Shown here piece after piece: positions 11,471-14,329 of a stretch of DNA of 64,000 nt; positions within the stretch are counted from its first letter, which is position 1; every line of letters begins with the position of its first letter. The notes beneath the pieces were generated by a model. The model was given only the letters and a program-made list of their open reading frames with translations. It was not told the DNA's origin and did not search any database. The stretch is taken from positions 310,001 to 374,000 of the forward strand of contig VRMN01000002.1 in NCBI GenBank assembly GCA_008690995.1, given 5' to 3'. This stretch comes from Porphyridium purpureum. Its lineage: Eukaryota. The translations under genes and the position numbers were made by a program.

Positions 11471-14329
11471 ATGTCGGCGGCCTATCGAAGCGACAGGTCG
11501 GACAGCCTCAACTCAAGTGGCGCAGGGTCCGATGACCTCGGAAAACTGATGCCGTTTGTAGAGACCATTTACAAGGTGGCCGAAATTCTGACGGAGTACG
11601 CACAGACCGCGCAGACGAATTATGCATCTTGTGGAAAGCTTGCCGAGCGGGGTACAAGCGTCTCGAACACTCTGCGCACATATTTTGGCACCAAAGACGA
11701 AAAAGATAGTATCGGTAGGGGTGATACAAGGAGTAATACCATGGTCGCATGTCTGAGCGAGCTGGAGTCTGAGCTGCAGTCTGCGTGCTCTCTTGTGAAG
11801 CGATTTTCCGGTCCAGACCAGTCGGCCGGAAGAGCGCTTCGTGCCTTGATGGCTAAAAACTTTCAGGGCGAGTTCCTGACGTGCGAAGCACGCCTCGTCG
11901 AGCTCGAGTCCCAATTGCTTCAAATTGTCATATTCAAAATGTCGCACGATCTGAAGCGGGACAGCCAATTCAAGATTGGCAAATTGAAAATCACTCTGCG
12001 CGAGTTGGAAGCCGTCCCTCACGAAATGGTTCGCGCTCTTGAAGCGGACAGACAGCGCGACACAACGAAACTTGAGAACGAGCTTCAATCTCGTCCAGAC
12101 AAACGCGCTGTGCTAAGTATGCACGGCGTGGAAGTGAAAAGTACGAGTTCGTTCTTAGACGCTGCGAAATCTGGGCTTGCATCAAATCGGCCCGAAGGAA
12201 GTGAACCTTGGTATGTCGAGGCGGGACTTGCTGTGAAGCTCCAGAACACCGTGGGCTCGAGGGTAACGTTCTTTGCTCTTGGCGGTGGTGGCTCCGGGAA
12301 CGTCTTCCAGGGCGAGTTCATGGGGCAAGACGTGGCCATCAAAGAGATCCGGTCAGCAGGCGACAAGGCGTTGCGTGAGCTGAGAAATGAGGTGGGCATC
12401 ATGTGGAGACTTTCACACGTAAACATCGTTCAGACGCGTGGTGGGTTTTATCCGCAGACGGGGGTGGAAGCTCATGAACGTGAATGCCCATTTATTCTAC
12501 TAGAATACGCCCCCAAGGGCTCACTTGAAAAGCATCTGTTCCATGCCGGCGGAAACAGCCTGCCATCACGCGAGCAACTGCTCAGAATCTTTCGAAGCAT
12601 CGTCGACGGCTTGAAGTATTTGCATGGGAACAACATCATCCATCGCGACATGAAACCCCAGAATGTCCTTCTTATGGACGACTGGACGCCGAAGATCAGC
12701 GATTTTGGGCTGGCCACCGTGAAGAGTTCGGGTTCATTCGCAAACACAATGCTTGGTACCAGCGGCTATATGGCACCCGAAGTTATTCGTCGGAAGCAGT
12801 ATAGCCGCTCTTGCGATGTATGGTCGTACGGTGTCATGCTATTCGAAATGATGCTCGGCGAGACGATGTTCGGAGGCGGATGCACGATTTTCGAAATTAT
12901 TGAAACGCTGGAAGATCCGAGGCGCGGTGTGCCGTGGGATAGATTGGACGAATCGGAGTACGCAAAACAATGGCCGGCCTGGGTTGCGAAATTAGCGAAA
13001 GCGTGTCTGCAGAATGACCCCGAGGAGCGCCCAACGGTGTCGGATATTTGGCTTGAGTTTTATTGCCGTATGGGTGGGGAGGGGGCCACTGCGGCTGCAA
13101 AGTCAGAGGCTTCCCAGCTTGCTGCGTCCCCGTTCGTCACCAGTACGTCCAAGGTTGCCGCGTTGGCAGGAAAATTTTCGCAGGTTTCGGCTGGATCTAG
13201 TGAGTCAACAGTCTCATCATCAAGCGCCGGACGTAGCACGACGAGGCCCAGCGGATCGTGGCCTGTGCAAGCGCAAGCGCTGAGTGCCGGTGGTAATCCT
13301 CGCTACGCAGAACAACGGGAGAAAACATGGGGCATGGCGCACGCGGCCGGCGTACGTCATACGGCAGCTGAGAACCATGCTAGTCTCGACGCAGAGGCGG
13401 CGGAGCTTGAGCGCCTCGCTGCAGAAGCCAAACTTGAAAAGCAGGAGGAAGCGCGGCGACGAGACCAAGAGACTGCACGTCGCGCCGCCGCCGCGCGCAA
13501 GGCGACCGAGGAGACGCAAAATCCCTTCGAGAAGAAGGCGCGAGATGCGGATGCGCAGCGTGACGCGAAAGTTGCTGAGGCGCAGCGGCGTGAACAAGAG
13601 GCCATGCAACACGCCGTGGAGCAAGCGCGTCGCGACGCCGCAGACTGGCAGCGTCGTGGTCAGGCTGAGGAGTTCGCTAACAAGAATCTCACGGGAGCGC
13701 TCGGGTGGTACAACAAGGCGGCACGAGCGGGAGACGCGTACTCGCAGTGTAAGTTAGGCTATTCCTGTTACATGGGCTTGGGCGGCCTGCGCCAGGACAA
13801 GCACGCAGCGGTCGCTTGGTTTCGCCACGCCGCGGAACAGGGAGACGCCAAGGCGCAGTTTAATTTGGGCGTCTGTTACAGCATCGGGGAGGGCGGTCTA
13901 CCGCAGGACAAGCATGCAGCGGTCGAGTGGTACCACAAGGCTGCGGAACAGGGAGAGCCAGGCGCGCAATTCAATTTGGGCCGGTGTTACGAGAACGGGT
14001 GGGGCGGTCTGCCGCAGGACAAGCGCGCGGCGCTCCACTGGTTCCGCAACGCCGCGGAACAAGGACGGGCAGATGCGCAGTGTAATATGGGCGTTTATTT
14101 CGAGCACGGCGAGGGCGGTCTGCCGCAGGATAAGTGCGCAGCGGTTGAGTGCTTCCGCAGTGCCGCGGCACAGGGACACGCACCGGCGCAGTTCAATTTT
14201 GGCCTTTATCACGAGAATGGGTGGGGCGGTCTGCCGCAGGACAACCGCGCGGCGGCCGAGTGGTACGGCAAGGCCGCGGCGCAGGGACAAGCAGAAGCGA
14301 AAGTCCGGTTGGCAAGACTGGGAAACTAG
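11471..14329 (+). CDS. MLKL-like four-helix bundle + protein kinase (TKL-like) + coiled coil + Sel1-like repeats
   Basis: Kinase motifs GGGGSG, VAIK, HRDMKPQN, DFG, APE and DVWSYG. C-terminal Sel1 repeats (AQFNLGxCYxxGxGGLPQDKxAAxxWxxxAAEQG). The N-terminal ~130 aa match the MLKL N-terminal domain pattern. Confidence 0.9.
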   Translation: MSAAYRSDRSDSLNSSGAGSDDLGKLMPFVETIYKVAEILTEYAQTAQTNYASCGKLAERGTSVSNTLRTYFGTKDEKDSIGRGDTRSNTMVACLSELESELQSACSLVKRFSGPDQSAGRALRALMAKNFQGEFLTCEARLVELESQLLQIVIFKMSHDLKRDSQFKIGKLKITLRELEAVPHEMVRALEADRQRDTTKLENELQSRPDKRAVLSMHGVEVKSTSSFLDAAKSGLASNRPEGSEPWYVEAGLAVKLQNTVGSRVTFFALGGGGSGNVFQGEFMGQDVAIKEIRSAGDKALRELRNEVGIMWRLSHVNIVQTRGGFYPQTGVEAHERECPFILLEYAPKGSLEKHLFHAGGNSLPSREQLLRIFRSIVDGLKYLHGNNIIHRDMKPQNVLLMDDWTPKISDFGLATVKSSGSFANTMLGTSGYMAPEVIRRKQYSRSCDVWSYGVMLFEMMLGETMFGGGCTIFEIIETLEDPRRGVPWDRLDESEYAKQWPAWVAKLAKACLQNDPEERPTVSDIWLEFYCRMGGEGATAAAKSEASQLAASPFVTSTSKVAALAGKFSQVSAGSSESTVSSSSAGRSTTRPSGSWPVQAQALSAGGNPRYAEQREKTWGMAHAAGVRHTAAENHASLDAEAAELERLAAEAKLEKQEEARRRDQETARRAAAARKATEETQNPFEKKARDADAQRDAKVAEAQRREQEAMQHAVEQARRDAADWQRRGQAEEFANKNLTGALGWYNKAARAGDAYSQCKLGYSCYMGLGGLRQDKHAAVAWFRHAAEQGDAKAQFNLGVCYSIGEGGLPQDKHAAVEWYHKAAEQGEPGAQFNLGRCYENGWGGLPQDKRAALHWFRNAAEQGRADAQCNMGVYFEHGEGGLPQDKCAAVECFRSAAAQGHAPAQFNFGLYHENGWGGLPQDNRAAAEWYGKAAAQGQAEAKVRLARLGN
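13730..14320 (+). repeat. Five 111-bp tandem coding repeats (37-aa Sel1 units)
   Basis: The core GGCGG(T/C)CT(G/A)C..CAGGA(C/T)AA recurs at 13781, 13892, 14003, 14114 and 14225, an exact 111-bp period. Confidence 0.92.

Follow-up and report, generated by a model that had tools for sequence, protein, structure and literature searches.

A candidate kinase-switched defence receptor in the red alga Porphyridium purpureum: a predicted MLKL-type bundle, a catalytically complete kinase and Sel1 repeats in one chain

Introduction

Can a unicellular red alga hold, within one protein chain, the executioner, the kinase and a candidate sensor of a necroptosis-like system? The question is raised by an intron-less gene at positions 11471-14329 (plus strand) of a 64,000-nucleotide stretch of Porphyridium purpureum DNA (assembly GCA_008690995.1, contig VRMN01000002.1, positions 310,001 to 374,000), here called the window, whose open reading frame (ORF) of 952 codons without a stop encodes a protein of 952 residues, P0001. 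A sequence-only reading had proposed that its N-terminus matches MLKL's four-helix bundle and is followed by an active kinase, a coiled coil and Sel1 repeats, the layout of a candidate immune receptor. A published survey of 67 protists, P. purpureum among them, reported no MLKL homologue and regarded the regulators of necroptosis as likely vertebrate-specific (PMC7539657).

Homology of the N-terminal domain

The N-terminal bundle is very probably homologous to the MLKL-type bundle, and the sequence evidence for this came through intermediates. A profile built from four family sequences, searched against 1.84 billion representatives, gave nine matches, namely seven family members, P0128 and P0129. 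The match to P0128 (E 1.5e-6) was rejected as a tandem-repeat artefact, being the sum of six stretches, with 9.6 bits per domain in the family model used below. The best genuine match outside the family was P0129 (E 2.4e-4), a clear MLKL_N protein (72 bits) that in turn matches solved chains of MLKL (PDB, E 2.8e-6); its N-terminal stretch is equivalent to, and in the same cluster as, that of P0131, an ENA metagenome protein of 609 residues with MLKL_N (70.7 bits), kinase and Sel1 matches all above the Pfam cut-off. The segments CGKLAER, ELQSACSLVKRFS and FLTCEARL of P0001 align with CQRLSER, TLQECLAFVQQFS and FMMHNQRL of P0131, and P0129 aligns the equivalent segments with CRRLGHR, ALEEANGEIEKFS and FKDVNRKL of the PDB MLKL chains. 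Because these two alignments chain, the register that the sequence-only reading had proposed for three segments of the MLKL N-terminus is reproduced, transitively. It also withstood shuffling: a hidden Markov model (HMM) of 15 family sequences scored the P0131 N-terminus at 35.5 bits, a value reached by none of the controls (the 1,996 block shuffles that were scored peaked at 19.4 bits, the 1,869 scored residue shuffles at 13.0), and hhalign gave a probability of 93.5% for the family against the same N-terminus.

The fold was examined with an AlphaFold model of residues 21-245, made from a 17-row alignment that included P0129 (predicted local distance difference test, pLDDT, 78; predicted template-modelling score, pTM, 0.73). 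The best structural match among 48,161 chains was MLKL 6ux8, with Z 13.8, a root-mean-square deviation of 3.0 and 11% identity over 150 of 152 residues; mouse MLKL (Z 12.4), HIP1R THATCH (12.3), HHM (11.8) and AtMLKL3 (11.6) came next, so that MLKL chains took ranks 1, 2 and 5, and NRG1.1 (Z 7.2) was the sole HeLo/HELL or RPW8-type chain among the structural matches listed. The MLKL-type match expected of the N-terminus was thus obtained by this route. The Foldseek search that had been suggested alongside it agreed in part: AtMLKL3 stood first, yet at E 0.05, and no match reached E<=0.001. The ESM Atlas look-alikes of residues 20-200 scored 0.83-0.91, and most of the listed sets that carried a family name were MLKL_N, MCAfunc or RPW8. 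The alignment to mouse MLKL (4btf) and AtMLKL3 (6ka4) reaches model residues 202-209, within the predicted brace-like helices that follow the bundle (Table 1). The bundle is conserved across two genera, being 36% identical to that of the Erythrolobus member described below. A weak PDB match, of the RPEL region of MAL to residues ~177-230 (E 0.05-0.4), was set aside because Pfam RPEL was not matched and the Arg-Pro is missing from most paralogues. The NCBIfam matches were to generic kinase and Sel1 families only, far under cut-off, with none in the bundle, and of 129 pattern matches in JGI metagenome contigs none proved to be a relative of the algal N-terminal domain.

The alternative to be weighed here would make the N-terminus a four-helix bundle of a generic kind, with no relationship to MLKL, and the protein an ordinary kinase-Sel1 fusion. 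Several direct comparisons agree with it. Residues 1-170 alone matched Pfam MLKL_N (PF22215) at 13.1 bits and E 0.07, missing the curated cut-off of 27 bits, and the paralogues, which matched at E 1.8e-4 and 8.9e-5 (best 22.5 bits), likewise fell under it; human MLKL was not found in the PDB at E<=10 by either the single-sequence or the four-sequence-profile search with the algal domain. The weak Foldseek result, the near tie of THATCH and HHM with MLKL and the fact that P0128, one of only two non-family profile matches, is a repeat artefact point the same way. Against this stand the colinear, in-register link through P0131 and P0129, which survives the shuffle controls, and the agreement of structure and language-model features on the MLKL family, and we consider an unrelated bundle very improbable.

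The kinase, the coiled coil and the Sel1 array

The Pfam Pkinase match (E 4.8e-55) contains each of the catalytic motifs that the sequence-only reading had listed, and these could be located individually: G271-x-G273-x-x-G276, VAIK (K291), the alphaC residue E307, HRDMKPQN (391-398), DFG (411-413), APE (435-437) and DVWSYG (449). Judged by these intact motifs, the kinase is not of the pseudokinase type. The nearest solved folds to the kinase model are RAF kinases, and the activation segment holds several Ser/Thr residues. In a tree of 24 rows (8 of the 32 chosen rows were skipped, and Pm13 was not included), the 11 algal kinases formed a clade of their own (96/96), separate from six plant receptor-like kinases (100/100), and the kinase of P0131, on a long branch, was left unplaced.

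The coiled coil and the Sel1 repeats followed in the proposed order (Table 1), the latter as five Pfam stretches (E 3.5e-45). The five units are 64-78% identical to one another at the DNA level, and each matches a unit of another paralogue more closely than any in its own array, a comparison that the larger pool inflates. The summed contig depth spikes over the array (13698-14310) in runs X4, X16 and X18; the spikes are probably short contigs of near-identical paralogue units, which makes them a hint of shared units and not a measure of copy number. No NB-ARC or NACHT NTPase was matched in Pfam at E<=0.1, and the kinase sits in the centre of the chain. The domain order is therefore as proposed, that of a candidate effector, switch and sensor with a kinase in the place of the NTPase.

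The gene family in Porphyridiales

A count of paralogues, also suggested by the sequence-only reading, put the family, with the present gene counted, at no fewer than 16 distinct sequences in P. purpureum and one in Erythrolobus australicus. The number comes from protein searches and is a lower bound, although some pairs (P0008 with P0133, and the two accessions each of P0125 and of P0126) may represent different haplotypes. In the full-length search, ten P. purpureum proteins and the one from Erythrolobus australicus filled the first 11 rows, with generic kinases below them (best 120 of 250 matches). Other red algae were absent from the matches listed, both for this search and for the profile, which was built from four sequences only, and there is no second family copy within the window.

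About nine members have the bundle, a whole kinase and a Sel1 array, and the others are truncated or altered: P0004 has DFR, P0014 lacks APE and P0124-P0127 are fragments. The number of C-terminal Sel1 units ranges from 1 to 11 across the ten proteins parsed, and internal duplicates that are 84-95% identical occur in four of the paralogues. Variable repeat number, truncated copies and recent duplications suggest a birth-and-death pattern, by analogy with the sensors of fungal NLRs, and an expansion of this kind would fit a role in surveillance. Public databases name P0002-P0014, P0126, P0130 and P0133 as cysteine-rich receptor-like kinase 39 or 14, or as EsiB; these are automatic labels that reflect the kinase or the Sel1 portion of the proteins and mask the N-terminal bundle.

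Comparison with known proteins

The fusion of a bundle with an active kinase has been described before, Pm13 being the sole tested precedent that we found. The sequence-only reading had described animal and plant MLKLs as carrying pseudokinases, which overlooks wheat Pm13, in which an MLKL_NTD and an intact kinase together give mildew resistance (PMC10951266). Like the algal protein, Pm13 (MLKL-K, from Aegilops longissima) has an MLKL_NTD four-helix bundle, a brace and a catalytically complete kinase in one chain and belongs to an expanded family; unlike it, Pm13 has 476 residues, no C-terminal repeats and a kinase of the plant receptor-kinase type (LRR_8B), and has been tested experimentally.

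The predicted bundle and brace superpose on those of animal MLKL (6ux8, 2msv, 4btf) and Arabidopsis MLKL1-3 (6ka4, 6lba) at Z 13.8, 12.4 and 11.6 and 11-15% identity, and in all of them a kinase fold follows. In the animal and Arabidopsis proteins, however, this is a pseudokinase switched by other proteins, and Sel1 repeats are absent, whereas the algal protein has intact motifs and an N-terminal extension of 26 residues. Plant MLKLs are described as pseudokinases with a cytotoxic bundle-plus-brace (bioRxiv 681015), and extended bundles have been described for BaMLKL and Goodbye-like domains (bioRxiv 2022.03.16.484565). In the present copy the extension is polar and predicted to be disordered (pLDDT<50 for residues 1-22), and it is more hydrophobic in most paralogues. 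Model residue 7, which is Met27 of the protein (11549-11551), pairs with MLKL residue 1 in the structural alignment; the paralogues have Ile, Leu or another residue there. A second start at Met27, which is speculative, would drop the polar extension.

The arrangement of bundle, kinase and Sel1 repeats is not unique to red algae, since P0131 has the same three domains and intact kinase motifs and is colinear with the algal protein at 26% identity over 527 columns; it differs in lacking both the long linker and the coiled coil and in carrying a smaller number of repeats. In the Atlas, the clusters closest to it are those of Mucoromycota kinase-Sel1 proteins (777 members, score 0.98). Searches with P0131 of GTDB genomes and JGI metagenome contigs gave no close relative: the matches, at nine GTDB loci and 22 metagenome loci, were to the kinase or Sel1 only, the bundle being present in none of 852 ORFs. 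For its N-terminal domain, a word-index search of 1,540 candidates gave no homologue at E<=1e-10. Similar fusions had been thought possible in fungi, and homologues of the MLKL family (TCDB 1.A.105) with Sel1 repeats are indeed noted in Glomeromycotina, with no function assigned (PMC8778642). These and the Mucoromycota proteins resemble the algal family in joining kinase and Sel1 within large lineage-specific expansions, but the MLKL assignment in that source may rest on the kinase part.

Reviews cover both the HELL-kinase fusions and the all-in-one HeLo NLRs of fungi (PMC12881547, PMC10197012). The all-in-one NLRs with HeLo, HELL or Goodbye-like domains share with the algal protein an MLKL-related N-terminal effector and, at the C-terminus, repeats that form a superstructure, but they switch by a NACHT or NB-ARC NTPase, whereas the algal protein, which has no NTPase match, would switch by a kinase. 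Elsewhere, activation of the bacterial Avs5 needs its TPR/Sel1 region (PMC12931631), NB-Sel1 fusions occur in Klebsormidium (PMC7145615), and viral mimics of MLKL are the subject of PMC10583209, which has no bearing on the algal protein. As the sequence-only reading had supposed, no characterized red-algal example emerged: neither a red-algal MLKL-like protein nor a characterized bundle-kinase-Sel1 protein appeared in the literature searched, which included few subscription papers. The protein is not MLKL proper, because it has no pseudokinase, nor an NLR, because it has no NTPase; by analogy it may be regarded as a kinase-switched counterpart of the all-in-one NLR, or as a Pm13 with an added repeat array.

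A proposed mechanism and its alternatives

Our favoured reading, which we hold tentatively and short of calling it probable, is that the protein is a self-contained cytosolic defence switch, gated by its Sel1 repeats, which phosphorylates itself and releases its bundle to the membrane. Recognition of a foreign or a modified protein by the Sel1 repeats would come first; the ligand-bound molecules would cluster through the brace and the coiled coil; the kinase would then phosphorylate its own chain; and the MLKL-type bundle, once set free, would attack the membrane. The step that RIPK3 performs in trans on MLKL would here sit within the same chain. The order of the domains, the catalytic motifs, the predicted fold and the turnover of the family are observed; ligand binding, oligomerization, autophosphorylation, bundle release and death are all proposed by analogy with the systems compared above. 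The reading is supported by the high ranks of MLKL chains in the structural search, the sequence link to P0131, the conservation of the bundle across two genera, the hydrophobic first helix of most family members, the birth-and-death pattern and the need of Avs5 for its TPR/Sel1 region. A broader claim is possible but doubtful: that Porphyridiales red algae possess a range of such necroptosis-like receptors, each complete in one chain, whose Sel1 repeats detect an intruder, whose own kinase acts as RIPK3 does in animals and whose released bundle lyses the cell.

A number of observations weigh against the favoured reading. Structure alone is not decisive for a helical bundle, because unrelated bundles such as THATCH and HHM nearly tie with MLKL, and the full-length model, with a pTM of 0.41, gives no reliable domain packing. 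The repeats show relaxed constraint and no positive selection, on very few data: from ten uncorrected pairs of the five units, the proportions of nonsynonymous (pN) and synonymous (pS) differences were 0.25 and 0.40 overall, and 0.48 and 0.53 at the nine positions that vary most in paralogues. A hydrophobic, membrane-targeting N-terminal helix is expected for effectors of the HeLo/HELL type (PMC12881547, PMC10197012), and most of the family agrees with this, the best 19-residue hydropathy window having a mean of 1.39-2.01 in 12 of 15 N-termini; the present copy (0.83), P0004 and P0127 lack such a window, which leaves the first helix here less hydrophobic than in 12 of the 14 relatives scored. 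The net charge of residues 21-165 is -2 in this copy. On the favoured reading, its more polar first helix might make this copy a weaker killer than its paralogues. Finally, in the tests reported for Pm13 the full-length protein, the bundle alone and the bundle-plus-brace were not lethal, whereas the brace-kinase alone killed and required kinase function (PMC11297308).

The last result introduces the closest rival, a defence kinase like Pm13 whose output would be the phosphorylation of other proteins, with the bundle as an autoinhibitory lid or a decoy, the brace driving dimerization of the kinase and the Sel1 repeats sensing, or recruiting, substrates. The authors of the Pm13 study themselves propose an inhibitory or decoy bundle (PMC11297308), and in this only tested precedent a missense mutation in the bundle abolishes resistance (PMC10951266). 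In the closest algal paralogues the kinase is the most conserved part (74-77% identity, against 57-63% for the bundle), the first helix of the present copy is polar, and the immunity conferred by AtMLKL is reported to be separable from cell death (bioRxiv 681015). A pure lid would not, however, obviously need the hydrophobic helix that most of the N-termini keep, and the N-domains of several invertebrate MLKLs are toxic across large distances, some of them killing human cells (PMC11476962). We regard this rival as rather doubtful in its turn, and rank the self-releasing switch narrowly above it.

If the protein were instead a signalling kinase that expanded in this lineage but plays no part in immunity, responding to stress, calcium or the environment, the bundle would be an oligomerization or adaptor module of the wider MLKL/MCAfunc/DUF7792 group. 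The look-alikes include MCAfunc and DUF7792 proteins, the repeats carry no signal of selection, and contigs of several independent runs cover the gene, which is compatible with constitutive expression; moreover, kinase and Sel1 genes are expanded in mycorrhizal Rhizophagus, where they are described only as possibly serving perception of the environment (PMC8647823). Rapid turnover of copies, variable repeats and many truncated members would nevertheless be more typical of conflict genes, and we think this explanation unlikely.

The family might also work as the favoured switch while the present copy is decaying, or is a specialized sensor and kinase partner that activates paralogues in trans. 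Most full-length paralogues carry a second, internal Sel1-like block, which this copy has lost, and several other members are truncated or altered in their motifs (P0004, P0014, P0124-P0127). The polar first helix looks derived, since within the clade to which this copy belongs two proteins have retained the hydrophobic form. With the 952-codon frame open, the kinase motifs intact and pN below pS in the repeats, decay or such specialization seems quite improbable.

Reading frame, expression and features of the gene

The public model of this gene, P0002 (1067 residues), is identical to our protein over residues 20-250 and requires an intron at 14308-14583. Contigs from runs X13, X1, X4, X8, X16 and X18 span this interval unspliced, and no joint is listed; we therefore prefer the 952-residue reading and regard the longer model as unsupported. 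The features assigned on this reading are collected in Table 1.

Table 1. Features of the gene, with positions in the window.
Feature	Position	Strand	Basis
Single-exon ORF: MLKL-type bundle, brace, kinase, linker, coiled coil, five Sel1 repeats	11471..14329	+	ORF and Pfam
N-terminal extension, residues 1-26, ahead of the position equivalent to MLKL residue 1	11471..11548	+	Structural alignment
MLKL-type four-helix bundle (predicted), residues 27-160	11549..11950	+	Model, structure search, HMM, alignments
Brace-like helices, residues 163-234	11957..12172	+	AlphaFold models; part-aligned to mouse MLKL and AtMLKL3
Ser/Thr-type protein kinase, residues 270-526, complete catalytic motifs	12278..13048	+	Pfam, motifs, model
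Ser/Thr-rich (32%) low-confidence linker, residues 537-610	13079..13300	+	Full-length model, composition
Remnant helix, residues 611-635, of the lost internal Sel1-like block	13301..13375	+	Alignment and model
Charged coiled-coil helices, residues 640-736	13388..13678	+	Full-length model
Five 37-residue (111-bp) Sel1 repeats, residues 756-940	13736..14290	+	Pfam, repeat analysis

The gene is likely to be transcribed. Twenty runs contain it, two of them recorded as RNA, and carry-over of DNA is possible in the contigs of RNA-labelled runs. In the RNA-labelled run X13 and in run X8 the gene is covered while most of the neighbouring retrotransposon is uncovered, whereas X18 covers the retrotransposon deeply; a hole in coverage proves nothing. 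Coverage continues for about 2 kb downstream of the stop (14330-16380) in contigs from several runs, RNA-labelled ones among them, with many substitutions relative to the window, which suggests either an extended 3' region or a transcript lacking annotation that varies among strains or haplotypes.

Neighbouring features

A young long terminal repeat (LTR) retrotransposon lies at 4258-9826, 1.6 kb upstream of the gene, with 320-bp LTRs that are 99.4% identical and a very high summed depth in run X18. Its ORF (4869-9461, 1530 residues) is of mixed make-up, with Ty3-type gag/protease, weak Myb-like and Copia-type RVT_2 matches. Towards the end of the window, a Ty3/gypsy-type pol ORF (59266-62631, minus strand) lies within 58728-64000, a segment bounded by a 110-bp exact repeat at 58728-58837 and 63891-64000, probably its LTRs, and a Tc3/mariner-like transposase ORF is found at 57739-58533. 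Two adjacent ORFs in 21113-26371 each contain an F-box and a SPOC domain, and the stretch 22112-22402 is duplicated at 26009-26299 with 73% identity.

Significance

The family represents an MLKL-type bundle overlooked in a species that had been surveyed for MLKL, because the bundle scores below the Pfam cut-off and its proteins are labelled as cysteine-rich receptor-like kinases or EsiB. Since bundle, kinase and candidate sensor share one intron-less gene, and the paralogues vary naturally, in first-helix hydrophobicity and in repeat number, the family makes two questions directly testable: does the bundle kill when it is joined to an active kinase, or does it serve as a lid, as Pm13 suggests; and do unicellular algae defend themselves by lytic cell suicide? 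If the broader claim made above is true, these proteins would form an NLR-like class in which a kinase switch replaces the NTPase, with lytic suicide as a defence in a unicellular alga, and could serve as a model of an MLKL ancestor that activated itself.

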